Below are positions 34,209 through 63,186 of a DNA stretch of 64,000 nucleotides, in pieces; the first letter of the stretch is position 1, and every line of letters starts with the position of its first letter. Under the pieces are notes generated by a model. The model searched no databases and had not been told where the DNA came from. It was given only the letters and a program-made list of their open reading frames with translations. The stretch is from Eubacteriales bacterium (GTDB lineage Bacteria; Bacillota; Clostridia; Oscillospirales; JAAYXM01), in NCBI GenBank assembly GCA_045586595.1, contig JAZNAQ010000022.1, positions 1,605 to 65,604 of the forward strand. The letters are read 5' to 3'. Both the position numbers and the translations under genes were made by a program.

Positions 34209-34327
34209 CTGGACTGGCATAGTATAAAACCTTAGCCTCTTGGCTTTGCGTCGCCGACTTTCGCCGGTTTTGCCAAATGTTCAATTTTCACCAGTTTATC
34301 ACACTAAAGCATTTTTGTCAAACACTT

Positions 34328-42838: not shown

Positions 42839-44689
42839 CTACTTCAGATTAATTGTTACCGTTTCTTCTTCCGCACAGAGCAGATATAAGTTTCCCGTAA
42901 GATGAGAAAAACTTCCGCCTTCTACGCTTTCATATTCACCTTCATTGAAGCGGACAAAGAAGTATCCCTCATCATAAAAATTGCCGATTTTAAGCACGAG
43001 TTTGTCTTCTGTGTGCTCCTTTTCTACAGTAATTGCCGCATATCTCTGCACCGCCGCAGAAGTTTCAGAGCCTGTGAAGTTTCTGATTGTCGGCGCCGAT
43101 GTGTAGAGATAGTTTAGATATTTATCAAAGCTTACAGAAAGACTTCTCCAACCCTTTTCCGCCCCTCGCTCTGGGTCAAGCGCATCGTCAGGGTGTGTAA
43201 AGTGGCTGTTTACAAAGTGCATATTAAGCTCAGACACAAGTGCAAGCTCCATAAACGGGGTAAGCTCGCAGCTTGATATAATTCGCGGCTGATACACTCT
43301 GCCGTCGGGCAGAACGTCAAACTCCTGTGTACATCCGAATTTAAAATCGCCGTCCGGGAAATATATCCCCGATATCGTCTTTATGTGTGGATATGTACTG
43401 AACAAAAACTCTTCGCCAACCTTGGACATAATGTTTGATGGCGGAACATATAGCGACACATCAACACCGGGAAAAAGCCTTTCGCAAAGGTCTACAAGCG
43501 AGTCAAACGCACTTTTCATTGCCCACTTACTTTCCCACGTTTTATAGTCGTACAGATCTCCATAATCACATTCGCTCATACAGAGAGGCTGATGGTTATA
43601 TCCGTGGTATCCAACCTCGCCGCCCTGTCGGAGAAGCATATTTCCAAAGTTCAAAAACGTGCCCTCGTCAGGCTCTGACGGGGTTGTTCCGTCAACATTG
43701 TCATCATATCCCGTAATCGCAAGTCCCGTGTATTTTATACCGTACTTATCTGCGAAGTCCATCATTGCAGGCCACCAGATGTTGACGTAAAAATCTCTTG
43801 TTGTCGCCCCGAAATCACGCATTATATACTCATTACTGCCCTGCGGAATCTGCGACGGAAAGTCGTCGAGATAGAAGGTTGATGCATTTATAACCGGATA
43901 AACGGATATATCATCGAGCAAGCTGAAGGATGCAGCATAGAATCCGCGCGTAACCTTTTCACAAAGGCCTAAGTTATTTACAACAAACTTACCTTCTCCG
44001 TGTTTTGTTTCCCATATAAGCGGGGTGCGGCTTTCATTGTCAATCCATGCATGAACTTTCGCTCTCTGTTCATCAAGTCGAACCTCCCAAACTGAATCGT
44101 ATCCGTCCTCAACAACAAAGCCTCTGCCGCCACCAACCATAAATCCATCTTCAATATATATGCTTTCAAGATGTGCATTTTCCCACGATGCTTCCATGAT
44201 ACCGAGTGAGCTTTCAAGCACAGATACATATATATCTCTCTGAAGTGTAAGCGCAAACAAAACTTTTCCGCCAGCATACACCCAATCACTCAGGCTAATA
44301 ATATTTTCTCCTATCGGAGACAAACTGCCCAAGAGAATGACTACCTTATCATACTTTGACAAGTCCGGAAATGCACATTTTGACAAATCAGCGATGTCAT
44401 ATCCCACTTTCATATCCGACAGGATTAGAGGAAATTCATCAAGGGCTTCTTTGCTTTCAGGCTGACTCGTGTCGCACAGAACAAGTGTGTTTTTGGCAAG
44501 CGTCTCATTTGCCTGCCTCTTGGTAACAATATTCGAAGTTTCTAAAAGCTGAAGGTCGGGCTTGTTATAATTATATTGAATTCCGCTTCGCTCAACAAAA
44601 AGAACTACTGCCATAAGCGCAAACATCAAGATAACTACAAGCATGCCGTTATATCTGAATTTTAAAAATCTTTCTTTCAATCTTTCCAA
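42839..44689 (-). CDS. PelA-like polysaccharide deacetylase-type protein (DUF2194-like), membrane anchored
   Basis: 616 aa with an N-terminal TM helix and CE4-like motifs (YLDDFP, GYHGYNH). It sits between pelE-like and pelF, as in Gram-positive pel operons. Confidence 0.5.
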   Translation of the reverse strand: MERLKERFLKFRYNGMLVVILMFALMAVVLFVERSGIQYNYNKPDLQLLETSNIVTKRQANETLAKNTLVLCDTSQPESKEALDEFPLILSDMKVGYDIADLSKCAFPDLSKYDKVVILLGSLSPIGENIISLSDWVYAGGKVLFALTLQRDIYVSVLESSLGIMEASWENAHLESIYIEDGFMVGGGRGFVVEDGYDSVWEVRLDEQRAKVHAWIDNESRTPLIWETKHGEGKFVVNNLGLCEKVTRGFYAASFSLLDDISVYPVINASTFYLDDFPSQIPQGSNEYIMRDFGATTRDFYVNIWWPAMMDFADKYGIKYTGLAITGYDDNVDGTTPSEPDEGTFLNFGNMLLRQGGEVGYHGYNHQPLCMSECDYGDLYDYKTWESKWAMKSAFDSLVDLCERLFPGVDVSLYVPPSNIMSKVGEEFLFSTYPHIKTISGIYFPDGDFKFGCTQEFDVLPDGRVYQPRIISSCELTPFMELALVSELNMHFVNSHFTHPDDALDPERGAEKGWRSLSVSFDKYLNYLYTSAPTIRNFTGSETSAAVQRYAAITVEKEHTEDKLVLKIGNFYDEGYFFVRFNEGEYESVEGGSFSHLTGNLYLLCAEEETVTINLK

Positions 44690-49203: not shown

Positions 49204-49210
49204 ACTATAC

Positions 49211-49246
49211 AAAAGGCTCTGTACTGTGTCGGGTACAGAGCCTTTT
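49211..49246. terminator. Bidirectional terminator (end of the ilvE-oxidoreductase operon)
   Basis: AAAAGGCTCTGTAC-TGTGTCGG-GTACAGAGCCTTTT. Confidence 0.85.
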
Positions 49247-49255
49247 GATTTTGTT

Positions 49256-49789
49256 TTAGTCTTTGTAGTTAATTCCGCAGTTGATTGCCTTTAAGTTTAC
49301 TTCTAAAAGGTTTGCGCGCTTTGCAGAAACAACCTTCTTGAGTGAATCCTCAATATTGTCAGTTCTCATGCCGCTTTCCTTCATGAGCTTACCTGTGATA
49401 ATCATGTTTGCGAGCGTCGGTGCCTCCATAGCCTGTGCAAGCTGTGTTGCTGGGATATAGAACACCTTGACGTCGTCTCTCTTAACCTTGCGCTCGATAA
49501 GAGTTGAGTCAACGATAATCATACCGCCGGGTACAACTGCATCCTCATACTTATCAAGTGACGGAAGGTTCATTGCAACAAGAATATCGGGGTTTGAAAC
49601 AATGGGTGAGCCTACAGGGTCATCAGAGAGGATAACGCTGCAGTTTGCTGTGCCGCCGCGCATCTCCGGACCATAGGACGGAAGCCAGCTGAGCTGTTTT
49701 CCCTCAAGAAGGCCTTTATATGCAAGGAACTTACCCGCGAACAGGATGCCCTGGCCTCCAAAGCCCGCTAAAAGCAACTGTGTTGTCAT
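49256..49789 (-). CDS. 2-oxoacid:ferredoxin oxidoreductase, gamma subunit
   Basis: About 177 aa from [20 protein letters not shown]. That start is 2 nt after the beta stop, so the track ORF's 27-codon extension overlaps the beta subunit. Confidence 0.85.
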
Positions 49790-49791
49790 AA

Positions 49792-50544
49792 TTATGCTTC
49801 CTCCTTCTGTGCGCTCTTGTCTCTGTAAACACCGAGCGGATAGTATGGAATCATCTTCTCGTCTACCCACTTGAGAGCGTCATTCGGAGTCATACCCCAG
49901 TTTGTCGGGCAGGTAGAGACAACCTCGATAAGAGAGAATCCCTTTCCCTCAACCTGATTGCGAAACGCCTTGAGAATTGCCTTACCCGCAGCCTTTACAT
50001 TTTTAACGCTGTTTACTGCAACACGCTCAATATACTCAGGTCCGTCGAGAGTTGAGAGCATTTCGCTGACTCTTATCGGGTAGCCTGCTGTTGTTACATC
50101 ACGCCCGTACGGAGATGTCTGAGTTACCTGGCCGGGGAGTGATGTCGGGGCCATCTGGCCTCCGGTCATACCGTAGATTGCGTTATTTACAAATATAACG
50201 GTAATGTTTTCATTACGAGCTGCTGCGTGGACTGTCTCTGCCATACCGATTGAGGCAAGGTCTCCGTCGCCCTGATATGTAAAGATAACATTCTCAGGGA
50301 AAGCTCGCTTAAGGCCCGTTGCGACAGCCGGAGCACGGCCGTGAGCCGCCTCTACCATATCGCATGAAAAGTAATCATATGCCATAACAGAGCATCCGAC
50401 CGGTGCGACACCGATTGTCTTGCCCTCTACGCCGAGTGCGTCAATCGCCTCAGCAACAAGGCGGTGAATAATGCCGTGGGTGCAGCCCGGGCAGTAGTGA
50501 AGCGGTGCGTCTGTTAAGCTTTTCGGTTTTTCAAATACTACCAT
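49792..50544 (-). CDS. 2-oxoacid:ferredoxin oxidoreductase, beta (TPP-binding) subunit
   Basis: 250 aa with YCPGCTHG and the GDGD TPP motif. Confidence 0.88.
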   Translation of the reverse strand: MVVFEKPKSLTDAPLHYCPGCTHGIIHRLVAEAIDALGVEGKTIGVAPVGCSVMAYDYFSCDMVEAAHGRAPAVATGLKRAFPENVIFTYQGDGDLASIGMAETVHAAARNENITVIFVNNAIYGMTGGQMAPTSLPGQVTQTSPYGRDVTTAGYPIRVSEMLSTLDGPEYIERVAVNSVKNVKAAGKAILKAFRNQVEGKGFSLIEVVSTCPTNWGMTPNDALKWVDEKMIPYYPLGVYRDKSAQKEEA

Positions 50545-51605
50545 TAGTTGCTACCTCCCTTGACTTCTTTAATTTTTTCAAGAACCTGCTCAGGTGACGG
50601 AATCATGCCGCCGACGCGGTTACAGAGATGAACAGGCTTTTTGCAGTCTGTTGCAAGGCGGATGTCTTCAATCATCTGGCCCATTGAAAGCTCAACGCTG
50701 ATAAATGCCTGTACCTTATCTGCAGCCTCAGCAAGCGGTGCCTTCGGGAACGGCCATACGGTAATCGGGCGAATCATACCGACCTTTATACCCTCTTTTC
50801 GTGCTGCAACAACTGCGTTCTTTGCAACACGGGCAGCGATACCGAATGCGACAACACAGTACTCTGCATCATCCATCATAAAGCTTTCGTATCTTGCCTC
50901 TGTCTCTTCTATAAGCTTATATCTCTCATAGCGCTCGATATTCTTCTGCTCGAGCTCTTCAGGCTTTAAGTAGAGCGAGTTTATGATGTTATGCTCGCGC
51001 TTCATATCAGTTCCGGTTACTGCCCACGGCTTATCTGTTGTATTAACGCTTTCTTCAGGAAGCTCAACCGGCTCCATCATCTGCCCCATTGTGCCGTCTG
51101 CAAGAAGCATAGCAGGCATACGATATTTTTCGGCAAGCTCAAACGCAAGAGCTGTCATATCAGCCATTTCCTGAACGGATTCAGGTGTAAGGACTATCAT
51201 GCGATAGTCGCCGTGACCTCCGCCCTTTGTTGACTGGAAGTAGTCTGACTGAGACGGCTGGATGCCGCCGAGACCGGGGCCGCCGCGCTGTACGTTAACG
51301 ATAAGTGCCGGAAGGTCTGCACCTGCAATATAGGAGATACCCTCCTGCTTAAGCGAGATACCGGGGCTTGAGGAGGAGGTCATAACACGCTTGCCTGTAC
51401 CCGCAACTCCGTATACCATATTAATAGCCGAGATTTCACTCTCTGCCTGGAGGAATGTCCCCCCGATTTTCGGCATTCTCTTTGCCATGTATGCCGCAAC
51501 CTCTGTCTGCGGTGTTATCGGATAACCGAAGTAATGGCGACAGCCCGCACGGATAGCGGCTTCTGCGATTGCTTCGTTACCTTTCATCAAAACTTTTTCT
51601 GCCAT
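50544..51605 (-). CDS. 2-oxoacid:ferredoxin oxidoreductase, alpha subunit
   Basis: About 353 aa from MAEKVLMKGNEAIAEAA, with RBS GAGGTG 8 nt upstream. Typical VOR/KOR alpha N-terminus. Confidence 0.88.
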   Translation of the reverse strand: MAEKVLMKGNEAIAEAAIRAGCRHYFGYPITPQTEVAAYMAKRMPKIGGTFLQAESEISAINMVYGVAGTGKRVMTSSSSPGISLKQEGISYIAGADLPALIVNVQRGGPGLGGIQPSQSDYFQSTKGGGHGDYRMIVLTPESVQEMADMTALAFELAEKYRMPAMLLADGTMGQMMEPVELPEESVNTTDKPWAVTGTDMKREHNIINSLYLKPEELEQKNIERYERYKLIEETEARYESFMMDDAEYCVVAFGIAARVAKNAVVAARKEGIKVGMIRPITVWPFPKAPLAEAADKVQAFISVELSMGQMIEDIRLATDCKKPVHLCNRVGGMIPSPEQVLEKIKEVKGGSN

Positions 51606-51617
51606 TTTCCGCACACC

Positions 51618-51824
51618 TCACTTTTCTACCTTGATTACGCAGTCCGGGCACATAGTTGCACAGAATGCGCAAGCGATACATTTCTCCTGGTCGGTTATCT
51701 CCGCCGGAGAATGACCCTTTTTGTTGATTTTGTCTTTTGCAAGACGGATTATCCCCTTCGGACAAGCTGTAACACAAAGGCCACAACCCTTACAAATGTC
51801 CGAGTCGAATGTTACCTTAGCCAT
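51618..51824 (-). CDS. 2-oxoacid:ferredoxin oxidoreductase, delta subunit (2x[4Fe-4S] ferredoxin)
   Basis: 68 aa with two CxxCxxCxxxCP motifs. Confidence 0.88.
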   Translation of the reverse strand: MAKVTFDSDICKGCGLCVTACPKGIIRLAKDKINKKGHSPAEITDQEKCIACAFCATMCPDCVIKVEK

Positions 51825-51845
51825 AATAACACTCCTTTTTCTGTA

Positions 51846-52514
51846 TTAAAATAATTTTTCTTGTAATTTGAGTTTAAAGAAAGACGTATTTTGCGCCTGC
51901 TCGCAAAGATTCTTTTCTGATGTTGTCATAACAACGGGAACGCCGGATATTTCCGCAAGTTCTTCAGCAAATGCCAAGGTGTTCACAACATCGTCGATTG
52001 TCGTCTCGACCCCGATATTGGAGTTATTGACAATCCCCGTAAACGGAATCCCCGATGCTGTTTCTATCTCGCGAAAAACCTCAAGCGCTTCTTTTGCCGT
52101 ACGCGTAAGCGGGCGATAGAAGTTTACAACGAACAGGTTTGCAAAGTCGTTCTCTTCTAAAATATACGGACGGTATCTGCCAAGAGCATACGCACCGCGG
52201 TCATCGCCGCCTATGTCCATAACAACCCGGCGGTCTCTCCTCTGCACAAGGCCATAGACCTCCTGCGGAAGCGAGGGCAAATCTACGCTTGTGTTTGCAA
52301 ACGGTAGCGCAATAACCTCAACACCTGCATCGGTAAGCTCTTTTAAGCTATCCTTTGTGCGGAAATACGGATTTACAATATCAATATCAGCGATACTTAC
52401 GGGAAAACCTTTCTCGCTTAAGTGGAGCGCATAGTTTACCGCGATGTTGGTTTTGCCGCTGCCGTAGTGGCCGCAGAAAAGAGTAACTCTTTTATTTAAA
52501 GCGTGATTGTCCAA
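51846..52514 (-). CDS. MinD/CooC-like P-loop NTPase, function unknown
   Basis: 222 aa with a deviant Walker A (GHYGSGKTN). Embedded between ilvE and the delta subunit, overlapping ilvE by 19 nt. Confidence 0.5.
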   Translation of the reverse strand: MDNHALNKRVTLFCGHYGSGKTNIAVNYALHLSEKGFPVSIADIDIVNPYFRTKDSLKELTDAGVEVIALPFANTSVDLPSLPQEVYGLVQRRDRRVVMDIGGDDRGAYALGRYRPYILEENDFANLFVVNFYRPLTRTAKEALEVFREIETASGIPFTGIVNNSNIGVETTIDDVVNTLAFAEELAEISGVPVVMTTSEKNLCEQAQNTSFFKLKLQEKLF

Positions 52515-53563
52515 TTAAACTTATCCTCACACTTGCCCCACTGAATACCTGTGATGGTGTCATAGAGCTTCTGGCTGACCTCGCCTATTGTGTTGTTATT
52601 GATAAGCATAACATCGTCTTTATAACGAAGCTTACCAACCGGCGAGATTACGGCTGCCGTGCCTGTTCCGAAGCACTCTTCAAGCTTGCCGCTCTTCTGT
52701 GCATTTAAAAGCTCCTCAACGCTTATTTTGCGTTCCTCAACCTCATATCCCCAGGACTTACATACCTCAATTACCGAGTTTCTTGTGATACCCGGCAGAA
52801 TGCTGCCGGAGTGCTCCGGGGTTACGATTTTGCCGTCAATCTTAAAGAAGATGTTCATAGCACCGACTTCTTCGATGTACTTTCTCTCTACACCGTCAAG
52901 CCAGAGAACCTGTGAATAGCCCTCGTCGTGAGCCTTGACCTGAGCCGCAAGAGAAGCTGCGTAGTTACCGCCTGTCTTTGCAAAGCCCATACCGCCCTTG
53001 ACAGCGCGGACATAGTCGTCTTCAATCCAGATACCTACAGGAGCAAGGCCGCTTGCGTAATATGCGCCTGACGGAGAAAGGATGATGATAAAGAGATATG
53101 TCTTTGACGGTGCAACACCGAGGAACTCGTCTGTTGCGATGATAAACGGTCTTATGTAGAGCGATGTGCCGGGGGCTGTGGGTATCCAATCCTCATCAAC
53201 CTTGACAACTGCTTTACATGCCTCTACAAAAAGCTCCTCAGGAAGCTGAGGGATGCAAAGACGCTCGTTTGTGGCGTTTGTTCTCTTTGCGTTCATATCA
53301 GGTCTGAAAAGGCGAGCCTTTCCGTCACGTCCTCTGTATGCCTTAAGGCCTTCAAACATTTCCTGACCGTAGTGGAAAACCATTGCGGACGGGTCGAGAG
53401 AGAGCTTCTCATACGGGACTATTCTCCCGTCGTGCCAGCCTTTTCCCTCGGTATAGTTCATAACAAACATATGGTCTGTAAACACCTTGCCAAAGCCGAG
53501 CTTTGACTCATCTTCTGGTCGCTGTTTAGGATTTGTTGTTTTTGTTATCGGAAAATTATACAT
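52496..53563 (-). CDS. ilvE: Branched-chain amino acid aminotransferase
   Basis: 355 aa, fold-type IV PLP enzyme (long IlvE form) with motifs FEGLKAY, GGNYAASL and GITR. Confidence 0.9.
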   Translation of the reverse strand: MYNFPITKTTNPKQRPEDESKLGFGKVFTDHMFVMNYTEGKGWHDGRIVPYEKLSLDPSAMVFHYGQEMFEGLKAYRGRDGKARLFRPDMNAKRTNATNERLCIPQLPEELFVEACKAVVKVDEDWIPTAPGTSLYIRPFIIATDEFLGVAPSKTYLFIIILSPSGAYYASGLAPVGIWIEDDYVRAVKGGMGFAKTGGNYAASLAAQVKAHDEGYSQVLWLDGVERKYIEEVGAMNIFFKIDGKIVTPEHSGSILPGITRNSVIEVCKSWGYEVEERKISVEELLNAQKSGKLEECFGTGTAAVISPVGKLRYKDDVMLINNNTIGEVSQKLYDTITGIQWGKCEDKFNWTITL

Positions 53564-53588
53564 TTCAAATCTCTCCTTTTTATTTATA

Positions 53589-55877
53589 TCACAGCTTATT
53601 TCTCTGAATCTTTCCGCTTACTGTCTTGGGCAGCTCGTCACGGAATACGACGAGGCGCGGATATTTATACGGAGCTGTATGCTCTTTAACATAGTTCTGA
53701 ATCTCTTTCTTGAGTTCTTCTGTAGGCTCTGTGCCCTTTGTAAGAACGATACTTGCCTTTACTATCTGGCCGCGAACCTCATCAGGTGCTGCAGAAACGC
53801 CACACTCAAGGACGTACGGAAGCTCCATGATAACGCTTTCAATCTCAAACGGCCCGATGCGGTAGCCGGATGACTTGATAACGTCATCAACACGGCCGAC
53901 ATACCAATAGAAGCCGTCCTCATCACGCCATGCGGTATCTCCTGTGTGATAGTATCCGTCGTGGAGAACCTCAAGAGTTTTTTCCTCGTCGCGGTAGTAC
54001 TCAACAAAGAGGCCGCAGGGCTTGCCGTTCTTTACGTTAATTACGATTTCGCCGGTCTCACCGACAGCTACGGGCTCGCCTTTGTCATTTACAAGCTCAA
54101 CATTGTATATCGGAGCAGGCTTACCCATAGAACCAATTTTGTGCGGAGCACCTATCATGTTACCGATAATCATTGTGCTCTCTGTCTGGCCAAAGCCCTC
54201 AATTATCTGAAGGCCTGTTGCCTTTTCAAATTGCTTATAGACCTCGGGGTTTAAAGCCTCGCCCGCTGTTGACATATGCTTGACAGACGAGAAGTCATAC
54301 TGCGAAATATCTTCTTTAACAAGCATACGAAGCATTGTAGGCGGTGCGCAGAAGGTCGTGATGTTATGACGCGCAAACATCGGAAGAATTTCTTTCGCAT
54401 CAAAGCGGTCAAAGTCATAAACGAATATTGCCGCCTCGCAAAGCCACTGGCCGTAGAGCTTACCCCACATAGACTTTGCCCAGCCTGTATCTGAAATTGT
54501 GAAGTGTAGCCCATCAGGGTCAACATTGTGCCAATACTTTGCTGTATGGAAGTGACCGAGCGGATATTTATGGTTGTGTGCCGCAATCTTCGGGTATCCG
54601 GTAGTGCCGGATGTAAAGAACATCAGAAGCAAATCATCGCCGCACGGTGAATCATCGTTTCTTTCAAAGTGTGAGCTGTATAGCGGGTACTCGTCAGCAA
54701 AGCTTCTCCAACCCTCACGCTCGCCACCGACTATAATCTTATGTATAAGCTCAGGGCAGGTCTTTGCCGCCTCATCTACCTGTGCGGTACACTCTCCGTC
54801 TGCCGTGCAGAGGATTGTGTTTACGCCCGCCGCCTGAAAACGATACTCAAAGTCATGAACCTGAAGCTGGTTTGTGGCGGGGATAGCGATTGCGCCGAGC
54901 TTATTAAGACCAATCATAGCATACCAGAATTCGTAATGACGCTTCAGTACGAGCATAACTCTGTCGCCTTTTTTGATACCGAGTGACTTAAAGTAGTTTG
55001 CGCATCTTGCTGATTCACGCTTTACATCCTCAAAAGTAATGCGGCGTTCTACTTTATTCTTGTCGATATGAAGCATCGCAAGCTTATCAGGCTCGCGTTC
55101 TGCCAAAGCATCTACAAGGTCGAAAGCAAAGTTAAAGTTTTCGGTGTTTTTAAACTCAATCTTTGTAGGTGTTCCCTTTTCGTTCTCTTCAACAGAAATA
55201 TACTTACGGTAAATTCTGTCCTTAGTGTCACGCTTGACCTCGCGGGGATCGTCGATAGCTTTTATCGGAGTAAGCTCAGGAATGGGCTCACCTGACGGAT
55301 TCAAAACGATTGCATAGAAAACACAATCACGACCGTTTACGGCAATCATACCGTGTGGGGTATTACTGTCAAAGTAAATGCTGTCACCCGCGCGGAGAAC
55401 CTCGCGGTGCTCGCCTATCTGAACCATAAGCTCGCCCTCAACGACTATGTCACACTCCTGACCATCGTGAGTGGTAAGCTCAATATCGCGGTTTTGCGCG
55501 CTCTCATCATAAGCACATCTGACGTAGAGCGGCTCTGCGATTCTGTTCTGAAAAGCATATGCAAGGTTATAATATGTCATGCCATGAGCATTTGCTATTT
55601 CCTGCCCCAAACCGTTTCTTGTAACCGTAAACGATTTAAGAGTAGGGCTGTAGCCCTCAATAATATCTGTTACGTTAACACGCAATGCAAGCGCGCAACG
55701 GTAAAGGAATGCAAAGTTAAGGTCTTGCTTGCCTTCTTCACACAAAATATACTCTTCAACCGAAACATCGGTCTTTTCGGCCATCTCTGCCGGGGTCAAC
55801 CCCTCAATCTCACGAAGTTCGCGTATACGAGATGCCATCTCTTGAATTTTGTAGTCAAGTCCTGATATAGGTTGCAT
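53589..55877 (-). CDS. XRE-HTH + cupin + medium/short-chain acyl-CoA synthetase (AMP-forming) fusion, paralog 1 (behind the Val T-box)
   Basis: 762 aa from ATG 55877 (MQPISG..., RBS GAAAGGATGG). HTH (LTPAEMAEKTDVSVEEY), cupin (GDSIYFDSNTPHGMIA), then AMP-binding motifs FTSGTTGYPK, YHTGDTAWRDEDGFYWYVGRVDDVIKSSGYRIGPFEIE and SGKIQR. Confidence 0.85.
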   Translation of the reverse strand: MQPISGLDYKIQEMASRIRELREIEGLTPAEMAEKTDVSVEEYILCEEGKQDLNFAFLYRCALALRVNVTDIIEGYSPTLKSFTVTRNGLGQEIANAHGMTYYNLAYAFQNRIAEPLYVRCAYDESAQNRDIELTTHDGQECDIVVEGELMVQIGEHREVLRAGDSIYFDSNTPHGMIAVNGRDCVFYAIVLNPSGEPIPELTPIKAIDDPREVKRDTKDRIYRKYISVEENEKGTPTKIEFKNTENFNFAFDLVDALAEREPDKLAMLHIDKNKVERRITFEDVKRESARCANYFKSLGIKKGDRVMLVLKRHYEFWYAMIGLNKLGAIAIPATNQLQVHDFEYRFQAAGVNTILCTADGECTAQVDEAAKTCPELIHKIIVGGEREGWRSFADEYPLYSSHFERNDDSPCGDDLLLMFFTSGTTGYPKIAAHNHKYPLGHFHTAKYWHNVDPDGLHFTISDTGWAKSMWGKLYGQWLCEAAIFVYDFDRFDAKEILPMFARHNITTFCAPPTMLRMLVKEDISQYDFSSVKHMSTAGEALNPEVYKQFEKATGLQIIEGFGQTESTMIIGNMIGAPHKIGSMGKPAPIYNVELVNDKGEPVAVGETGEIVINVKNGKPCGLFVEYYRDEEKTLEVLHDGYYHTGDTAWRDEDGFYWYVGRVDDVIKSSGYRIGPFEIESVIMELPYVLECGVSAAPDEVRGQIVKASIVLTKGTEPTEELKKEIQNYVKEHTAPYKYPRLVVFRDELPKTVSGKIQRNKL

Positions 55878-55905
55878 AATAAGCCATCCTTTCACGGAAC
55901 GAATT

Positions 55906-56191
55906 AAAAAGCACTCGTCCCAAAGCTGATAATCTTTGAGACGAGTGTCAGAATTTCTAATACACCCGCGGTACCACTCAAATTGCGCTTTACGCGCCAC
56001 TCAGACTCAAACAAGCCGTATGCATTTACGCAGCAGTCACGGAAAGGTTCTACTCGCCTTATATAAGACTTTCTTCCTCTCAGCTCAGAAGCTACAGACA
56101 CAAGTAACAATGCCGATAGTTCACACCCACCACTATCTCTCTGAAGGACTGTACACTCACGCTCTCTTCGTCAACGCCTTTATATTCATTT
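55906..56191 (-). promoter_or_regulatory. T-box riboswitch, specifier GUA (Val)
   Basis: Promoter TTGACA (56226-56221), 17 nt spacer, TATAAT (56203-56198). Stem I has the GA motif UUGACGAAG, AGAGAG bulge and a GGUG distal loop. Specifier loop GUCU-GUA-G-CUUC (codon at plus 56093-56095). CCGUGA F-box. T-box UUUGAGUGGUACCGCGGG (55965-55984). Terminator CACUCGUC...GACGAGUG plus U5 (55906-55947). Confidence 0.85.
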
Positions 56192-56278
56192 GTGGTTATT
56201 ATATATCAGTCAAGGGAATTTGTCAATACCTATTTGTGGCATATTATGAGTTTTTATGCGAGTTTTTGCGATTATCTA

Positions 56279-58546
56279 TCAAAGTTTATTCCTCTGAATT
56301 TTACCGCTTATTGTCTTGGGGAGTTCATCACGGAATACAACAAGGCGCGGGTATTTATACGGCGCTGTATGCTCCTTGACGTAGTTCTGGATTTCTTTCT
56401 TAAGCTCTTCCGTCGGCTCCGTCCCCTTTGTAAGAACAATGCTTGCCTTTACAATCTGACCGCGGAGCTCATCGGGAGCTGCAGAAACGCCGCACTCGAG
56501 AACATACGGAAGCTCCATAATGACACTCTCAATCTCACACGGCCCGATGCGGTAACCGGATGATTTGATAACATCGTCAATTCGGCTGACATACCAGAAA
56601 TAGCCGTCCTCATCACGCCATGCGGTATCTTCTGTGTGGTACATTCCGCCACGCATACACTCTTCCATTTTTTCTTCATCATCAAGATACTGTCTGAAGA
56701 GGCCAACAGGAGTTCCGTTATCAAGGCGTACAACAATTTCACCGACCTCACCATTTGCAACCGGGTTGCCGTCGAGGTCAACAATATCAATATCATACTG
56801 CGGAGATGCCTTGCCCATTGCGCCTACGCGCGGAGTCGTACCATAGAGGTTTGCGATAACAAGGGTTGTTTCTGTTTGGCCGAAGCCCTCCATTATCTTA
56901 AGGCCTGTTGCCTTTTCAAATTGCTTATACACTTCGGGGTTGAGTGCCTCTCCTGCTGTTGTCATATGGTGGATGGAGGAAAGGTCGTATTTTGAAAGGT
57001 CTTCTTTTATGAACATACGAAGCATTGTTGGCGGCGCGCAGAAGGTTGTGATGTTGTATTTTGCAAACATCGGGAGAATTTCGTTTGCAGAAAAGCGGTC
57101 AAAGTCGTAAACGAATACTGCCCCCTCGCAGAGCCATTGGCCATAGAGCTTACCCCAGAGGGATTTGCCCCAGCCTGTGTCAGAGATTGTAAAGTGGAGC
57201 CCATCACGCTCGCAGCAGTGCCAGTATTTTGCAGTCACAAAGTGACCAAGGCCGTATGTGTGCTTATGCTCGACCATTTTCGGGTTACCTGTTGTTCCCG
57301 ACGAGAAGAACATAAGAGCCGCCTCATCGCCGCAGGGGGTATCATCGCTTCTGTCAAAGTGGCTTGAGAACATTGCATATTCGCTGTCAAAATCATGCCA
57401 GCCATCGCGATGACCGCCGACAAGTACAAGAGTTTTTACACTCGGGCATTTCTTTGCTGCAGCCTCTGCGATTGTAGCCGTATCATCATCAGCGGTGCAG
57501 ACAACAGCCTTTACGTTTGCCGCCTCATAGCGGTATACAAAGTCGTGGTCCTTAAGCTGATGTGTTGCAGGGATTGCAACAGCACCGAGCTTATGAAGCG
57601 CAACCATCGCAAACCAGAACTGATAATGGCGCTTGAGAACAAGCATTACGCGGTCACCCTGACCGATGCCGAGTGACTTGAAATAGTTTGCACATCGTGC
57701 CGATTCTTTTCTTATATCATCAAATGTAAAGCGGCGCTCAACCATGTTCTTGTCAACATGGAGCATCGCAAGCTTATCGGGAGTTTTCTTTGCAATTTCG
57801 TCGACAACATCGAAGCCGAAGTTGAATGTATCAGTATTCATAAACTCGATTTTTTCGAGTACGCCCGGCTCGCTCTCTGTACATTTTACAAACTTCTCAC
57901 ACGCGAGCTTTGTTGCCGGACGAAGAGATACAACGCTCTCGCGCACTTCTTCTTCCTTTGCATCCTCTCCAGGGAGAACTACTGCACAGAATACGCAGTC
58001 TTCACCGTTTACAGCTATCATACCGTGCGGTGTGGAGCTGTTATAGTAGATGCTGTCACCCTCGCTTAAAACTTCGGTGTGAGTGCCGACCTGAACCTTG
58101 AGCGAGCCCTTGAGAACGAGGTCAAACTCCTGCCCGCTATGCTTTGTAAGGTGTATCGGCTTATTCTGCTGCTCCTCAGAGTATTCATATCTTACCCAAT
58201 AGGGCTCAGCTATTTTGTTTTTAAACTTCGGGGCAAGGTTTGAAATGCTGATACCCTCCTCTTTAGCCGTCTCCTGCCCCTTGCCCTTACGAGTTACGGT
58301 GTAAGAGGAAAGATGCGCCGTGCGGCCCTCCAAAAGTTCTGTAAGCTCAATACCAAAGGCAAGCGCGCATTTGTGAAGAAACGAGAACGGCATATCCGCC
58401 GCACCGTTTTCGAACTTTTTGTATTCATCAAGTGTTACTTCGGTTTTCTCTGCCATCTGGTTTGCAGTCATACCCATAACCTCACGCATCTCACGGATGC
58501 GGGCTGCAACCTCGCCGAGTTGTGTCATAGTTTTTTCTGTGCTCAT
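56279..58546 (-). CDS. XRE-HTH + cupin + acyl-CoA synthetase (AMP-forming) fusion, paralog 2 (behind the Ile T-box)
   Basis: 755 aa from ATG 58546 (MSTEKT..., RBS AAAGGAG). Same architecture as paralog 1, with the C-terminal ~85 aa nearly identical. Confidence 0.85.
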   Translation of the reverse strand: MSTEKTMTQLGEVAARIREMREVMGMTANQMAEKTEVTLDEYKKFENGAADMPFSFLHKCALAFGIELTELLEGRTAHLSSYTVTRKGKGQETAKEEGISISNLAPKFKNKIAEPYWVRYEYSEEQQNKPIHLTKHSGQEFDLVLKGSLKVQVGTHTEVLSEGDSIYYNSSTPHGMIAVNGEDCVFCAVVLPGEDAKEEEVRESVVSLRPATKLACEKFVKCTESEPGVLEKIEFMNTDTFNFGFDVVDEIAKKTPDKLAMLHVDKNMVERRFTFDDIRKESARCANYFKSLGIGQGDRVMLVLKRHYQFWFAMVALHKLGAVAIPATHQLKDHDFVYRYEAANVKAVVCTADDDTATIAEAAAKKCPSVKTLVLVGGHRDGWHDFDSEYAMFSSHFDRSDDTPCGDEAALMFFSSGTTGNPKMVEHKHTYGLGHFVTAKYWHCCERDGLHFTISDTGWGKSLWGKLYGQWLCEGAVFVYDFDRFSANEILPMFAKYNITTFCAPPTMLRMFIKEDLSKYDLSSIHHMTTAGEALNPEVYKQFEKATGLKIMEGFGQTETTLVIANLYGTTPRVGAMGKASPQYDIDIVDLDGNPVANGEVGEIVVRLDNGTPVGLFRQYLDDEEKMEECMRGGMYHTEDTAWRDEDGYFWYVSRIDDVIKSSGYRIGPCEIESVIMELPYVLECGVSAAPDELRGQIVKASIVLTKGTEPTEELKKEIQNYVKEHTAPYKYPRLVVFRDELPKTISGKIQRNKL

Positions 58547-58597
58547 TGCATTTTCTCCTTTCAAATTAAAAACCTTAAAATTTTTAATTGAATAACA

Positions 58598-58879
58598 AAG
58601 ACTCGTCTCAAAGCTTTTATACTTTGAGACGAGCCGAATAAACTATATCCGATACCCGCGGTACCACTCAAATTGCGCTTTACGCGCCACTCAGGCTCAA
58701 ACAAGCCTTATGCATTAACGCAGCAATCACGGAAAGCGTCTACTCGTCAAATCAAACTTTCGGGCTTCCAGCTCAGAAGTGATAGGCAAAAAACATTTCG
58801 CTACCGGGATTACACCGTCCCCGACTCTCTGTAAGCTACCTTGCTTTTCCGTCTTCGTCATAGCCTTTGCTATTCAATT
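58598..58879 (-). promoter_or_regulatory. T-box riboswitch, specifier AUC (Ile)
   Basis: Promoter TTGACA (58914-58909), 17 nt spacer, TAAACT (58891-58886). Stem I has AUGACGAAG, AGAGAG and a GGUGUAA distal loop. Specifier loop GCCU-AUC-A-CUUC (plus 58781-58783). T-box UUUGAGUGGUACCGCGGG (58655-58674). Terminator GGCUCGUCUCAAAG...CUUUGAGACGAGUC plus U run (58598-58635). Confidence 0.85.
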
Positions 58880-58924
58880 GAATACAGTTTACACCTGTTT
58901 TTTCTCTTTGTCAAGACCTTTTTG

Positions 58925-61384
58925 TTATTTTTTAAGACCAAGAATTTTCTCTGATTCCTCACGCATTTTATATTTAAGAATCTTACCCGCGGCGTTCATT
59001 GGGAACTCATTGACAAACAAGAAATATCTCGGCACCTTATGGCGCGCGATAGACGCGTTTCCGAACTCGCGCATCTCTGCCTCGTCGGAGGTTTCGCCCT
59101 TATGGAGAATAATCCACGCGCAACATTCCTCACCGTAACGCTCATCGGGAACTCCTACAATCTGAACATCTCGTATCTTCGGATTTGTCAGGTAGAACTC
59201 CTCAATTTCACGCGGATAGAGGTTTTCGCCACCGCGGATAATCATGTCCTTAAGTCGGCCTGTTACCTTATAATATCCGTCAGGCGTACGGCAACAAATA
59301 TCACCGGAGTGAAGCCAGCCGTCAGCATCAATAGTCTGTGCTGTTGCGTTGGGCATTTTGTAGTAGCCCTTCATTATGTTAAAGCCTCGCGCAACAAACT
59401 CGCCGCTCTCACCGTCAGGAAGCTCCTCACCCGTTTCAGGATCAATGACCTTACACTCAACACCCGGGAAAGCACTTCCGACAGTCTCGACCCTGTGGTC
59501 GAGGTCTTCATTAACCTCTCCCATGGTACAGCCGGGAGAAGCCTCAGTCTGGCCGTAAACGGAGATAATCTCGCGCATATTCATCTCAACAGAGGCACGG
59601 CGCATAAGGTCAGCAGGGCAGTTTGCTCCCGCCATGATGCCCGTACGCATATATGAAAAATCTGTCTTTTCAAAGTCAGGGTGGTTAAACATTGCGATAA
59701 ACATAGTAGGAACACCGTTAAAGCATGTGATATGCTCATCGTTAACGCACGCAAGTGACGATTTCGGTGAGAAGTACGGCATCGGGCAAAGCGTGCCGCC
59801 GTGAGTCATCATTGACGTCATCGAAAGCACCATTCCGAAGCAGTGGAACATCGGCACCTGAATCATCATTCGATCGGCAGTGGAAAGGTCCATCCTGTCA
59901 CCGATTGTCTTGCCGTTGTTTACAATATTTCTGTGTGTGAGCATAACGCCCTTCGGGAAACCGGTTGTACCTGAGGTGTATTGCATATTACATACATCGT
60001 CAGGCTTTACCATTGATGCACGACGGCGTACCTCCTCCTTCGGAACAAGTGCCGCGCGGTCAAGCATCTGCCCCCATGTAAGACAGCCGTGCATAGAGAA
60101 GCCAGCAGTAACAACATTGCGTAAAAACGGCAACTTTTTTGAGTAAAGCGCATCGCCCGGCTTCATATTTTCAAGCTCGGGGCAAAGCTCCTGGATGATT
60201 TCGCGGTAGTTTATATCCTTGCAGTCCTCAATCATAACAAGTGTATGGGTGTCAGACTGCTTTAGCAGATACTCAATCTCGTGGATTTTATATGCTGTAT
60301 TAACTGTTACAAGAACTGCCCCTATTTTAGTTGTTGCCCAGAAGGTTATGAACCACTGAGGAACATTTGTAGCCCATACTGCAACATGGTCGCCCGCTTT
60401 TACGCCGAGCGAAATAAGCGCCGCAGCGCACTCGTCGACATCACGCCGAAACTGTGAATATGTCCTTGTATAGTCGAGCGTAGTATACTTAAACGCATAC
60501 TGGTCAGGATAAGTCTCCGCCATGGTATCAAGCACCTGCGAGAAGGTCTTATCTATAACATCATACTTTTTCCATACAAATGTGCCTGTTCCCGCACGGT
60601 TATAATACAACTTATCATACTCTTTCTTCTCGCGTGAAAGGTTTGCAATATAGTTTGCAAAATGAGTAAGAACGATGTCTGCATCATTTATCTCGTCATT
60701 CCATGCAACCGATACAAAGCCGTCGAAGTTAAGAGACGAAAGTGCGTTTATAAACTCGGTTACAGGAAGAGAGCCTTCACCGATGAGGACGTTTTGTCCG
60801 TCCTTCTTATCGCCGAGGCGTACATACTTAATATATGCGCCAAGGTTTGTAATTGTTTTCTCCGCGCTCTCGCCTGCGCCGAAGTATGTTTCGCGGACAT
60901 TCCATGACGCGCCAACTACTGCAGAAGAAAAGAAATTGATAATATCAATGACATTCTCGGTTGCAGAGAGGTGTCCTGCAGTTTCAAGAAGAATCTGAAT
61001 ATCTGTTTCTTCAGCGCGTTTGATTGCCGGAGCGAGCTTTTTTGAAAGTTCTTCGTTTGACATTTTCTCCTCTATCCTGAGGATAATGCGCTCAACACCG
61101 GCGCTTGAAGCCATATTGACATATTTGAGTATTTCATCTGCGCTTGCATAATCACTTCCTGCATCATGAGGATATACAAGAGCGGATACCTCAAGCCCGC
61201 GATTTACGAGTTTTCTCTTTGCATCGGCCACTCTGTCACTGCGGAGAATGCTGTCGTAGTGCTTCTTTCTTTCACCAAGAGCGTCATAAATCTCAAACCC
61301 CGAATAACCGTAGTCATATGCATAACGACACATATCGAGAAACGACGGGCGGTTTACATTTTTTGTCGAAAAGGTAAGCTTCAT
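58925..61384 (-). CDS. Xylose-isomerase-like TIM-barrel domain fused to a FadD-type AMP-forming acyl-CoA ligase
   Basis: 819 aa from ATG 61384 (MKLTFSTK; RBS GAGGAGGA lies inside the upstream gene's end). The N-terminal ~260 aa are AP-endonuclease-2/sugar-isomerase-like. The C-terminal part carries YTSGTTGFPKGV, YGQTE, GWLHSGD and RGGENLYPREIE. Confidence 0.75.
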   Translation of the reverse strand: MKLTFSTKNVNRPSFLDMCRYAYDYGYSGFEIYDALGERKKHYDSILRSDRVADAKRKLVNRGLEVSALVYPHDAGSDYASADEILKYVNMASSAGVERIILRIEEKMSNEELSKKLAPAIKRAEETDIQILLETAGHLSATENVIDIINFFSSAVVGASWNVRETYFGAGESAEKTITNLGAYIKYVRLGDKKDGQNVLIGEGSLPVTEFINALSSLNFDGFVSVAWNDEINDADIVLTHFANYIANLSREKKEYDKLYYNRAGTGTFVWKKYDVIDKTFSQVLDTMAETYPDQYAFKYTTLDYTRTYSQFRRDVDECAAALISLGVKAGDHVAVWATNVPQWFITFWATTKIGAVLVTVNTAYKIHEIEYLLKQSDTHTLVMIEDCKDINYREIIQELCPELENMKPGDALYSKKLPFLRNVVTAGFSMHGCLTWGQMLDRAALVPKEEVRRRASMVKPDDVCNMQYTSGTTGFPKGVMLTHRNIVNNGKTIGDRMDLSTADRMMIQVPMFHCFGMVLSMTSMMTHGGTLCPMPYFSPKSSLACVNDEHITCFNGVPTMFIAMFNHPDFEKTDFSYMRTGIMAGANCPADLMRRASVEMNMREIISVYGQTEASPGCTMGEVNEDLDHRVETVGSAFPGVECKVIDPETGEELPDGESGEFVARGFNIMKGYYKMPNATAQTIDADGWLHSGDICCRTPDGYYKVTGRLKDMIIRGGENLYPREIEEFYLTNPKIRDVQIVGVPDERYGEECCAWIILHKGETSDEAEMREFGNASIARHKVPRYFLFVNEFPMNAAGKILKYKMREESEKILGLKK

Positions 61385-61385
61385 C

Positions 61386-62774
61386 TTAATCCTCCTCAAA
61401 CACTATCTTATTCAGCGCGTTGATATACGCTCTGATGCTTGCTGCCACAATATCAGTAGAGATTCCGTTGCCGGAATAGAGTTTTCCATCCACGCGAAGC
61501 TTTACAACAGCCGAGCCAAGAGCCTCCTTGCCCTCAGTAACGGCATGGATCTGGAAATCGTCAAGCTCATAGTGATAGCCTATGCACTGTTCTATTGCAC
61601 GAAATGCTGAGTCTACAGCGCCGTCACCCATACTTACGCCGCAGAGAATTTCGTCACCGCACTTGAGCGTAACCTGTGACATGGCACTTGTGAGATTGCC
61701 GCAGTTTGTGGTGTAGCTCTCAAGGTGATATGTTGACGGTGCCTGCATGGCAGAGCTTGCTATAAGTGCCTCAAGCTCCTTCGCGCCGACTGTGCTCTTC
61801 TTCTCGCATACCTGCACAAGAGCACGGTATACATTTCCGTTATCCTCATCGGAAAGGTCATATCCGAGAACCTTTGCAGCCTGTGCAACATCTGAAAGCG
61901 TACTGTCGCAATCAAGAACGATTTTTTTCTTCTCACTTGCAGCATCTGCGCTCTCGTAAGCATCATGATTTATCTTTCGGAGCATCTCATCTACACTTGA
62001 ATGTATCTGGGTAGCTACAATAGAAGTGGATATGCCGAGAGCTTCGCCTCTTGCGCTTATTGCGTCAGAGAGCTCGCCTACAGACAAAACATTCTTTCCT
62101 GCCATCGCACACTTAAGCCCGTCAGCCCCTGCCTTTACCGCAGCAATAGCAGTTGCAACAGCCATATTGATACTGTCGGATACCTGAACATATACCGATG
62201 TGTTTACCTGAGCCTTTATTGCAGCGGTAAGCTCTGCAATCTCCTCAGGAAGTGAAACTCCGGCGTCGTCGCAGATAGTTACGATTCCTGCGCCGCTTGC
62301 CTCAGCCGCTTTAACTGCATTAATAATGAAGTCACGGTCTGCACGAGTTGCATCAAGTGCAACAAATTCGACATCGGGGCAGAATTTCTTTGCCTCGGCT
62401 ACAAGCTCTTCAATCTTTGTAAGCATCTTATCTGCCTTGAGATGATATATATACTCCATCTGCACCGTAGAAGTAGGGAGGGCTACCTGAAGGCGCGGCT
62501 TTGCTGCATCTTTTATACACTCCCATGCGACAGACACCTCGTCTGCCGTAAAGCCGACAGGGAGAGCGACTGCGCTGCTTTTAACGTTTGATGCAATCGT
62601 TTTATAAATAATTGTATCCTCGCGAACATTCTTTATTGGCGCAAGCTCAACAGCATCCGCACCGAGAGAATCTGCACACGCCGCTATAGCTGTTTTCTCT
62701 CTGAAGAGCAGTGAAACCTCACGGTCTTGTGAAAGCTCCTTTAACGTGATGTCAGTAACTAAAATTTTCTTCAT
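61386..62774 (-). CDS. 2-isopropylmalate synthase (LeuA) homolog lacking the catalytic and metal-binding residues but retaining the C-terminal LeuA regulatory domain
   Basis: 462 aa, collinear with recalled B. subtilis LeuA. DTTLRDGEQ is replaced by DITLKELSQ, HCHDD by QVSDS, and GIGERAGN by GKNVLSVG. The C-terminus (TEGKEALGSAVVKL...GISTDIVAASIRAYINALNKI) matches the LeuA_dimer domain. Confidence 0.7.
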   Translation of the reverse strand: MKKILVTDITLKELSQDREVSLLFREKTAIAACADSLGADAVELAPIKNVREDTIIYKTIASNVKSSAVALPVGFTADEVSVAWECIKDAAKPRLQVALPTSTVQMEYIYHLKADKMLTKIEELVAEAKKFCPDVEFVALDATRADRDFIINAVKAAEASGAGIVTICDDAGVSLPEEIAELTAAIKAQVNTSVYVQVSDSINMAVATAIAAVKAGADGLKCAMAGKNVLSVGELSDAISARGEALGISTSIVATQIHSSVDEMLRKINHDAYESADAASEKKKIVLDCDSTLSDVAQAAKVLGYDLSDEDNGNVYRALVQVCEKKSTVGAKELEALIASSAMQAPSTYHLESYTTNCGNLTSAMSQVTLKCGDEILCGVSMGDGAVDSAFRAIEQCIGYHYELDDFQIHAVTEGKEALGSAVVKLRVDGKLYSGNGISTDIVAASIRAYINALNKIVFEED

Positions 62775-62820
62775 AGGTAAAACCCCTTTCTCTGCAATTT
62801 AAATTTTCAGATGTTCGACA

Positions 62821-63127
62821 AAAACGCTTTCATCTCTTTGTTATCCTTTAATAACTCAAAGAGACGAAAGCGTTAAAACTCAAGTATTTAAACCTTTCGC
62901 GGTACCACTCTTTTTCATCCTACGGCGAGGATGCACCTCAGGTGCTGACACACCTTGACTCTGTTACGGGAGCTCCCGTCCGCCCCTACTCTCTTTCAAT
63001 TTCACGGCAGCCGCTCCGTGGTGAGTTCAACGAGGCTAACCCAATGCCTTGCACCAACCGGCATCTCTCTGCGCGGGTATAAGCTTTTCGCATACTATTC
63101 CACATCATCGCGTTTGTTTTCAATTTG
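62821..63127 (-). promoter_or_regulatory. T-box riboswitch, specifier CUC (Leu)
   Basis: Promoter TTGACA (63162-63157), 17 nt spacer, TATAAT (63139-63134). Stem I has GCGAUGAUGUGG, the AGUA S-turn, AGAGAG and a GGUGCAA distal loop. Textbook specifier loop GAA-CUC-A-CCAC (plus 63023-63025). T-box AGAGUGGUACCGCGAAAGG (62896-62912). Terminator AACGCUUUC...GAAAGCGUU plus U4 (62821-62874). Confidence 0.9.
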
Positions 63128-63186
63128 GTAAACATTATATCACTGCATTTTTTGTTTGTCAACAGTTTTCAAAAAATTTTATTAAC

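Follow-up and report, generated by a model that had tools for sequence, protein, structure and literature searches.

We analyzed a stretch of 64,000 nt (hereafter the window; contig JAZNAQ010000022.1, assembly GCA_045586595.1) from a Eubacteriales bacterium, an uncultured member of the ruminant-gut Clostridia, and found a gene cluster of about 14 kb that probably serves the demand-gated salvage of branched volatile fatty acids, plentiful in both rumen and hindgut, as precursors of leucine, isoleucine and valine. Its three units each begin with a T-box leader, an element that permits read-through when the cognate tRNA is uncharged. In the proposed pathway, uncharged tRNA-Leu, tRNA-Ile or tRNA-Val would bind its own leader and block termination, and the matching AMP-forming acyl-CoA ligase would then be made. 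A TIM barrel-ligase fusion (TIM-ligase) would act on isovalerate, and two ligases fused to a helix-turn-helix (HTH)-cupin module would act on 2-methylbutyrate and isobutyrate. The resulting acyl-CoAs would be reductively carboxylated to the three 2-oxo acids by a four-subunit, ferredoxin-dependent oxidoreductase of the VOR type (hereafter VOR), and the aminotransferase IlvE would transaminate these to the amino acids. Three accessory parts, namely a dead LeuA with an intact regulatory domain, a degenerate TIM barrel and the HTH-cupin module, may function as second-level sensors. The analysis establishes the elements, the families to which they belong and the conserved match between specifier and ligase type; the substrates, the reductive direction of the VOR and the induction are the parts of this scheme that we infer.

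The whole co-oriented array runs from 63162 to 49210 (window positions, as for all cluster elements) on the minus strand and was delineated with Rfam, Pfam, NCBIfam and a consensus scan. Protein families were assigned from Pfam and NCBIfam profiles at their curated cutoffs, T-boxes were scored with Rfam RF00230 (gathering score, 93 bits) and aligned via cmscan, and promoters and terminators were located by the consensus scan plus direct reading of the sequence. A first-pass annotation of this DNA had listed the elements in their minus-strand order, and each of them was recovered in place. In the direction of transcription they are as follows.

63134..63162, minus strand: promoter of the Leu unit, TTGACA-17-TATAAT, 12/12 consensus match
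62820..63117, minus strand: T-box leader with specifier CUC (Leu), terminator hairpin and T run; RF00230 match at 62857-63117, 107 bits
61386..62774, minus strand: LeuA-like pseudoenzyme, degenerate HMGL-like barrel plus LeuA_dimer (Pfam)
58925..61384, minus strand: TIM barrel (AP_endonuc_2) plus acyl-CoA ligase, 819 aa (Pfam AP_endonuc_2, AMP-binding and AMP-binding_C)
58886..58914, minus strand: promoter of the Ile unit, TTGACA-17-TAAACT, 10/12 consensus match
58600..58870, minus strand: T-box leader with specifier AUC (Ile); RF00230 match at 58622-58870, terminator at 58635-58600
56279..58546, minus strand: HTH-cupin-acyl-CoA ligase, Ile type (Pfam HTH_19, Cupin_2 and AMP-binding)
56198..56226, minus strand: promoter of the Val unit, TTGACA-17-TATAAT, 12/12 consensus match
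55912..56183, minus strand: T-box leader with specifier GUA (Val); RF00230 match at 55934-56183, terminator at 55947-55912
53589..55877, minus strand: HTH-cupin-acyl-CoA ligase, Val type (Pfam; best NCBIfam model MbcS)
52496..53563, minus strand: IlvE, branched-chain amino acid aminotransferase (NF009897, TIGR01123)
51846..52514, minus strand: small SIMIBI-class P-loop NTPase (weak Pfam ParA/NUBPL match)
51618..51824, minus strand: oxidoreductase delta subunit, ferredoxin-like, 68 aa, two Cys clusters (OFOR delta models, all under cutoff)
50544..51614, minus strand: oxidoreductase alpha subunit, VorB type (NF005507; Pfam POR_N and PFOR_II)
49792..50544, minus strand: oxidoreductase beta subunit, thiamine diphosphate binding (Pfam TPP_enzyme_C; OFOR beta models under cutoff)
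49256..49789, minus strand: oxidoreductase gamma subunit (Pfam POR; OFOR gamma models under cutoff)
49210..49247, both strands: two-way terminator hairpin closing the operon, 16-bp stem followed by a T run

The three leaders had been read as Leu, Ile and Val T-boxes, and their specifiers proved to be CUC, AUC and GUA in that order. The Leu leader scored over the RF00230 gathering score. The Ile and Val leaders scored under it (79.8 and 79.6 bits, respectively; E = 3e-16 for each) and reached 93 and 95.5 bits with a stem I covariance model that we built from eight leaders and ran over all related loci; orthologous leaders elsewhere scored 80–129 bits with RF00230. All three leaders contained the GGUGGUACCGCG box and GAGUGGUACCGCG, the T-box sequence with its UGGN, and in each of them the antiterminator and the terminator hairpin share a strand (3′ in the former, 5′ in the latter), and a T run follows the hairpin. 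Each leader stands behind a near-consensus promoter of the sigma-70 type. Each specifier consisted of the codon plus a purine (CUC-A, AUC-A, GUA-G) and lay just 5′ of a 4-bp helix. Among 130 distinct related stem I sequences, this helix was 99.8% paired and both partners had changed at each of its 4 pairs, and the whole of stem I was 90% paired, compared with at most 46% when the partners were slid, in an alignment that was fitted to the model and somewhat favors the structure. Because the adjoining helix covaries, the position of the specifier is anchored.

Relatives of the cluster were collected with the dead LeuA as the query against one genome per species, which yielded at least 523 genomes with relatives. 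The best 80 of these were all metagenome-assembled genomes (MAGs) of uncultured Clostridia, many from the gut of sheep, goat, deer or buffalo, under the names Acutalibacteraceae, Oscillospiraceae, Ructibacterium, Congzhengia, Christensenellaceae and others. Pairing statistics were based on 81 related loci from other genomes (designated here by L numbers), and some counts on 82 loci. The leaders before LeuA-like/TIM-ligase genes carried a leucine specifier in 71 of 72 cases (67 CUC and 4 CUG, with one CCC), the specifier before Ile-type ligases was AUC in 31/31, and that before Val-type ligases was GUA in 16/16. When the ligase proteins were clustered at 30% distance, the groups were pure by specifier. 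The full set of ligases, ilvE, P-loop gene and VOR occurred in at least eight gene orders, divergent arrangements included, and the contexts that were reached via ligase and P-loop homologues held an identical gene set. The recurrence of the arrangement in so many genomes is far beyond chance, and the retention of gene content despite changing gene order argues strongly that the genes form a functional unit. AMP-forming ligases drive the activation of acids. The first-pass annotation had argued from T-box logic that the genes supply amino acids, and this argument was strengthened by the finding that ligases of the activating direction stand behind the T-boxes and that specifier and ligase clade co-vary.

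Both HTH-cupin ligases are about 760 aa long and have AMP-binding and AMP-binding_C domains. In a PDB comparison made for the Ile-unit ligase, residues 224–753 matched 3ETC (MacsMa), the closest solved structure, with E = 8e-183. MbcS was the best NCBIfam model for both proteins (434 bits for the Ile type and 442.6 bits for the Val type), and because both missed its equivalog cutoff of 850 they are filed here as probable relatives of MbcS, not as MbcS itself. The expectation that relatives of the two paralogs prefer small branched acids agreed with published enzymology: MacsMa favors 2-methylbutyrate as substrate (PMC10455477), and purified MbcS activates 2-methylbutyrate and isobutyrate, with isovalerate a poor substrate (PMC10026030). 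We propose that the Ile-type enzyme is a 2-methylbutyrate-CoA ligase and the Val-type enzyme an isobutyrate-CoA ligase. The presence of a separate, different ligase in the Leu unit fits this proposal because the MbcS type is poor on isovalerate. Fourteen alignment positions fully separated the Ile-type from the Val-type ligases. Two of these flank a conserved Trp, in the motif GWGK..LWG of the Ile type (as in MacsMa) and GWAK(S/A)MWG of the Val type; the Val-type residues beside the Trp would fit a tighter pocket for a smaller acid, although the position of the pocket is uncertain. The Val-type ligase had thousands of full-length relatives in MAGs of Oscillospiraceae and Clostridia, and the cupin signature H.GQE.D ... 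PHGM was invariant.

Likeness between the Ile and Val units of the window (53589-56215 against 56279-58900) was uneven. The last ~350 nt of the two ligase genes were 83–87% identical and the 3′ halves of the T-boxes about 93% identical, and most of the rest was about 40–70% identical. This pattern suggests gene conversion between tandem paralogues.

The genes for the proposed second and third steps follow the Val-unit ligase, and the gap from its stop codon to ilvE is exactly 25 nt, as first reported. IlvE scored 514.5 bits with NF009897 (cutoff 307) and 432.6 bits with TIGR01123 (cutoff 250), and the alpha subunit scored 564.6 bits with the subfamily model NF005507 ('3-methyl-2-oxobutanoate dehydrogenase subunit VorB'; cutoff 399). 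VOR-type enzymes are reversible with low-potential ferredoxin, and IlvE interconverts the three 2-oxo acids and the amino acids. The specificity of the VOR and its reductive direction were assigned from its linkage to ilvE, the ligases and the T-boxes. With the VorB and branched-chain aminotransferase (BCAT) models passed, every in silico test agreed with the three-step reading of the first-pass annotation (activation, carboxylation, transamination), which we regard as a prediction from sequence. No ilv/leu biosynthetic genes were found in the 64-kb window.

The protein encoded between ilvE and the delta subunit gene is 222 aa long, had no NCBIfam match and lacks a Cys pair for a cluster. Its AlphaFold model had a predicted local distance difference test (pLDDT) score of 83, and the nearest folds were the GTPase domain of the signal recognition particle (SRP) and an ATPase-type HypB, with TM scores of ~0.5–0.6. 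HypB is a maturation factor of a metal center. In 22/23 loci the P-loop gene immediately preceded that of the delta subunit, and this fixed place suggests that its product is an accessory or maturation NTPase of the VOR.

Independent support for the pathway came from the control of the operon in relatives. In L070, a CUC (Leu) T-box lies directly before the P-loop, VOR and IlvE genes. Six loci without T-boxes (L007 9700-9960, L008, L009, L010, L012 and L029) instead have, ahead of the whole operon, a promoter, a leader open reading frame (ORF) and a GC-rich hairpin. The leader ORF is conserved, encodes 34–36 aa and is rich in Ile and Leu, with a ILLLIAIIILAI-type run (e.g., MNMQSFFTANILLLIAIIILAITKPDKNSAVCRVFK), and the hairpin was followed by a T run in 6/6 loci. 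The gene order in these six loci is LeuA-like, TIM-ligase, ilvE, P-loop, VOR, HTH-cupin and ligase. There, separate genes encode an HTH-cupin protein of 183 aa and a ligase of 574 aa, which shows the HTH-cupin-ligase fusion to be modular. When the leader-ORF loci were folded with ViennaRNA with the stalled ribosome masked, the terminator was always kept and no antiterminator was obtained. We regard the element as a candidate Ile/Leu leader-peptide attenuator.

Several further features were seen in and around the leaders. A AAATTGAATAT-like element between the -10 box and stem I is conserved in Ile- and Val-type leaders (56185-56200 and 58872-58885 in the window), and in the Ile leader of the window it makes the palindrome ATTCAATTGAAT. 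Weaker versions also occur in Leu leaders, whose units have no HTH gene. The element may mark where the leader RNA starts (its 5′ end) or act as an operator; a search for an HTH operator around it in the Ile, Val and Leu leaders produced no clear palindrome, and none is claimed. A promoter-like site at 55372-55345 (minus strand, 11/12 consensus match) inside the Val-unit ligase gene was rejected. The match arises from the codons for DSIYFDS..PHGMI, a conserved cupin motif, and is probably incidental to coding; a real promoter at this site would have uncoupled the VOR and IlvE from the Val T-box. The window also contains tRNA-Ala(CGC) at 9774-9849 and tRNA-Met(CAT) at 32437-32513 (both plus strand), neither of which partners any of the three T-boxes.

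The Leu unit differs in composition from the other two. Its first gene had been called a dead LeuA, and comparison with solved LeuA structures bore this out, since the metal-site and catalytic residues are replaced: DTTLRDGEQ became DITLKELSQ, HxHxD became QVSDS (with Q and S in place of the two metal His), and PEDA became ALDA (with Leu in place of Glu). The protein scored at best 256 bits against the LeuA equivalog models (cutoff 532), and it was also far under the cutoffs of the citramalate synthase and homocitrate synthase models. Its C-terminal LeuA_dimer domain (PF08502) scored 106.6 bits against a cutoff of 24.9. Thousands of relatives, labeled 'hypothetical protein' by NCBI, hold the length of 462 aa, and the active-site replacements are fixed across the family. 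LeuA_dimer is the most conserved region, with GDG..D..F.AIE and GNG.STDI..A...AY.NALNK nearly invariant, and residues S199 and D200 at the old active site were invariant in set A5 and nearly invariant in set A1. Because the length is kept and the regulatory domain is nearly invariant, the gene is not decaying. In genuine LeuA, this domain mediates leucine feedback. Rather than catalyzing a reaction, the LeuA-like protein probably acts as a sensor or as a regulatory partner. An AlphaFold model of it, made from a shallow alignment, had a mean pLDDT of 55.8 and was too poor for a fold search.

The LeuA-like gene was followed by the TIM-ligase gene in 78/78 loci with room for both. The TIM domain (PF01261) scored 51.3 bits against a cutoff of 31.1. 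When it was mapped onto the Glu/Asp/His/Glu motifs that we take to be the canonical metal ligands, the first metal Glu was kept (LETAGH), and the later positions read WNVR, YVRLGD and VSVAW (79 relatives and one weak pairwise alignment to 2ZDS), so that the domain seems to be without most of the canonical ligands. Its family is small: of 1.84 billion proteins, 530 representatives matched at E <= 1e-3, and some of these were stand-alone proteins of about 280 aa. Across related genomes, identity to the window copy was 88–93% for the ligase domain of the TIM-ligase in nearly all cases (73% in L001). The fused TIM domain (60–77%) and the LeuA-like protein (63–76%) diverge much faster, down to 32% and 45%, respectively, in L001.

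Several observations weigh against the proposed pathway, and most of them concern the Leu unit or the VOR. The TIM-ligase has no characterized close relative in NCBIfam or the PDB, where it drew generic ANL-superfamily matches with no hint of a substrate (best NCBIfam model PRK12583, 664 bits; cutoff 832), and the proposal that it is an isovalerate-CoA ligase comes from the Leu T-box and the context alone. In 20/82 loci (e.g., L001 20928-21740 and L082 17511-18326), the next gene after that of the TIM-ligase encodes an Amidohydro_2 (PF04909) protein of about 270 aa, a finding that hints that the Leu unit may exceed ligation in some genomes; this gene is absent from the window, and the proteins of the relatives had no NCBIfam match. 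In L016 (2586-2705), the orthologous Leu-unit leader reads CCC and has a low score of 53.9 bits. On the side of the VOR, NF005507 is a model of the 'subfamily' rank, not an equivalog, and the beta, gamma and delta subunits were under cutoff for every named family and do not fix the 2-oxoacid specificity. Finally, the VOR and IlvE of the window stand only behind the Val T-box. Since transcripts from upstream meet the downstream T-box terminators, limitation of Leu or Ile alone would need basal VOR and IlvE or other copies of them.

The uncertainty about the Leu unit leads to an alternative that we consider unlikely, namely that this unit handles another leucine precursor or forms a multi-step module with new catalysis in the TIM and LeuA-like domains. 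The conservation of both parts without decay, the fixation of new residues (S199 and D200) where the active site used to be, the Amidohydro_2 gene of some loci and the lack of a characterized close relative of the ligase are all compatible with such a function. The unit of the window, however, has no Amidohydro_2 gene, the metal ligands for the known chemistry of the two barrel families are replaced in the LeuA-like barrel and seem mostly to be lacking in the TIM barrel, and conservation in the LeuA-like protein peaks in its regulatory domain. In addition, isovalerate is the known precursor of leucine in the rumen (PMC7356843), and a separate ligase for it is to be expected if the MbcS type is poor on this acid.

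A second alternative, to which we give a low probability, is that the main task of the ligases is to provide branched acyl-CoA primers from which branched-chain membrane fatty acids are built, with amino acid synthesis secondary or absent; a shortage of branched-chain amino acids would stop the supply of primers from amino acid breakdown, and acids from outside would be activated instead. The best model for both HTH-cupin ligases is MbcS, whose proven role in Staphylococcus aureus is primer supply (PMC10026030), and in 30/82 loci the Leu unit stood alone with no VOR gene within 10 kb. Three amino-acid-specific T-boxes would be an odd choice for lipid primers, however, and ilvE and the VOR genes are co-transcribed behind the Val T-box, where running them oxidatively would waste a scarce amino acid. 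The Leu T-box directly before the VOR and IlvE genes in L070 likewise speaks against this alternative. It is possible that the two roles are compatible, in that one acyl-CoA pool could feed both.

That the cluster is catabolic, with IlvE and VOR oxidizing branched-chain amino acids to acyl-CoAs and with the ligases as unrelated neighbors or running in reverse, was already disfavored and is very improbable: VOR-type enzymes and IlvE are indeed best known from amino-acid fermenters, where they run oxidatively, and family matches are blind to direction, but T-boxes turn their genes on when the amino acid runs short, ligases of the AMP-forming kind in practice work only as activators, and the linkage of the cluster's ligases to VOR and IlvE persists across many gene orders. 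Moreover, fermenters usually release the acid with an energy gain via other enzymes, and no genes for such acid-releasing enzymes were found in the window.

Salvage of branched acids into amino acids is thus the reading that we retain, and an aromatic cassette found in relatives extends it. In eight loci (L034 6404-8479, L028, L046, L021, L040, L026, L077 and L074), an extra T-box with a PaaK-type ligase and a 143-aa ACT-like protein stands beside the Leu unit. The extra T-box scored 106–120 bits in the seven loci that were scored against Rfam, all above the gathering score, and its specifier, read by eye, was UUC (Phe) in seven loci and UGC in L074. The PaaK-type phenylacetate-CoA ligase scored 533.6 bits with TIGR02155 (cutoff 646). 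The classical rumen route leads from phenylacetate to phenylalanine. Judged by its sequence features, the cassette is a predicted aryl-acid ligase gated by tRNA-Phe, the aromatic counterpart of the branched-chain cassettes. Two other T-boxes were noted among the related loci: a UAC (Tyr) T-box before a 533-aa membrane protein in L039 (18343-18464, minus strand) and a UGG (Trp) T-box before a TrpB-like protein in L005 (15225-15343).

Each ligase type is thus paired with a usual small-molecule-binding domain (LeuA_dimer, cupin or ACT), which suggests a second layer of control. As a tentative extension, we suggest a wider tRNA-gated system of acid activation in gut Clostridia, in which each organic-acid CoA ligase would have its own sensor (the dead LeuA and TIM domain for Leu, HTH-cupin for Ile and Val, ACT for Phe). 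The dead LeuA would then be a regulatory subunit, end products would feed back, and the HTH-cupin ligases might exert BirA-like control of promoters. If the sensors act in this way, expression would need demand, signaled by uncharged tRNA, plus signals of supply or feedback.

The genes that flank the cluster are unrelated to it: downstream lie Pel-like polysaccharide, GGDEF/EAL and HD-domain genes, and the remainder of the window is housekeeping. A GGDEF gene (34328-36628) and a GGDEF/EAL gene (32702-34096) flank a cyclic di-GMP-I riboswitch (34201-34284, minus strand, 62.5 bits), which lies beside a Pel-like cluster that comprises PelG (39957-41417), a DUF3492 glycosyltransferase (41405-42835) and a DUF2194 gene (42839-44689). 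At 14359-16262 (minus strand), adjoining genes encode a LarC-like nickel-insertion protein and a LarB-like protein resembling aminoimidazole ribonucleotide (AIR) carboxylase, a pair that suggests synthesis of the nickel-pincer cofactor.

The need of gut and rumen anaerobes for branched volatile fatty acids, or their benefit from them, has been known for sixty years, and dairy cattle receive the acids as feed supplements. The cluster offers a testable gene set for this physiology, with one ligase per acid, together with a logic that predicts when the pathway runs. The dead LeuA may serve as its marker in at least 523 species-level genomes, and genome-based predictions of auxotrophy and cross-feeding in gut communities should count this salvage route. 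The cluster should interest both riboswitch researchers and microbiologists of the rumen and gut, and the pseudoenzyme-ligase pair and the HTH-cupin fusions are new subjects of study.

Among known systems, methanogens use anabolic 2-oxoisovalerate and indolepyruvate ferredoxin oxidoreductases to assimilate branched and aryl acids. These share with the present cluster a ferredoxin oxidoreductase that works in the synthetic direction on acyl-CoAs from outside acids, but they are archaeal and have no T-box control, fused sensor domains or dead LeuA partner. BirA, the biotin ligase/repressor, is an enzyme-repressor fusion, and its likeness to the HTH-cupin ligases, an adenylate-forming enzyme joined to a helix-turn-helix, is one of architecture only. 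Genuine LeuA shares the barrel and LeuA_dimer architecture with the LeuA-like protein, which differs from it by the replaced Asp/His/His site and catalytic Glu and by its pairing with the TIM-ligase. MacsMa of Methanosarcina acetivorans and MbcS belong to the same ligase family as the HTH-cupin ligases of the window, and both prefer 2-methylbutyrate. The window enzymes have about 220 additional N-terminal residues, which make up the HTH-cupin module, and fall into two specifier-linked clades, and, unlike MbcS, they sit with VOR and IlvE and not with lipid synthesis.

The T-box regulons for branched-chain amino acids in Firmicutes (PMC2494555, PMC3766115), which comprise genes of biosynthesis, transport and tRNA ligation, use the same riboswitch class, and in them, too, uncharged tRNA allows read-through and the specifier matches the amino acid supplied. 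Here, in contrast, the targets are acyl-CoA ligases and a ferredoxin oxidoreductase, and three different specifiers are chained in 14 kb; such targets are unmentioned in PMC2494555 and PMC3766115. In the literature that we searched, which did not cover one relevant survey, there was no description that links T-boxes, such ligases and VOR, and none that attributes the assimilation of branched volatile fatty acids into amino acids to particular genes.

The closest precedent is the reductive carboxylation described in rumen bacteria by Allison and co-workers, and the first-pass annotation had appealed to this classical labeling. According to PMC7356843, which cites Allison et al. 1966 and 1971, isovalerate is carboxylated to leucine and isobutyrate to valine in these bacteria, in accord with that appeal. 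The rumen system shares with the present cluster the precursors, the products, the habitat and the proposed route from acid to acyl-CoA, 2-oxo acid and amino acid. The classical work consisted of labeling and physiology and named no genes, whereas the cluster provides a gene set, three ligases and tRNA-sensing control, and its hosts are uncultured Oscillospirales-type Clostridia, unlike the classical rumen isolates. Rumen physiology, T-boxes, VOR, IlvE and the Macs/MbcS ligases are thus already known. What we propose as new, on the basis of the predicted gene functions, is the assignment of a gene cluster to the pathway, the presence of three ligases each with a matching T-box, and the extension of T-box targets; the putative pseudo-LeuA/TIM-ligase pair, the HTH-cupin fusions and the P-loop partner are also new.

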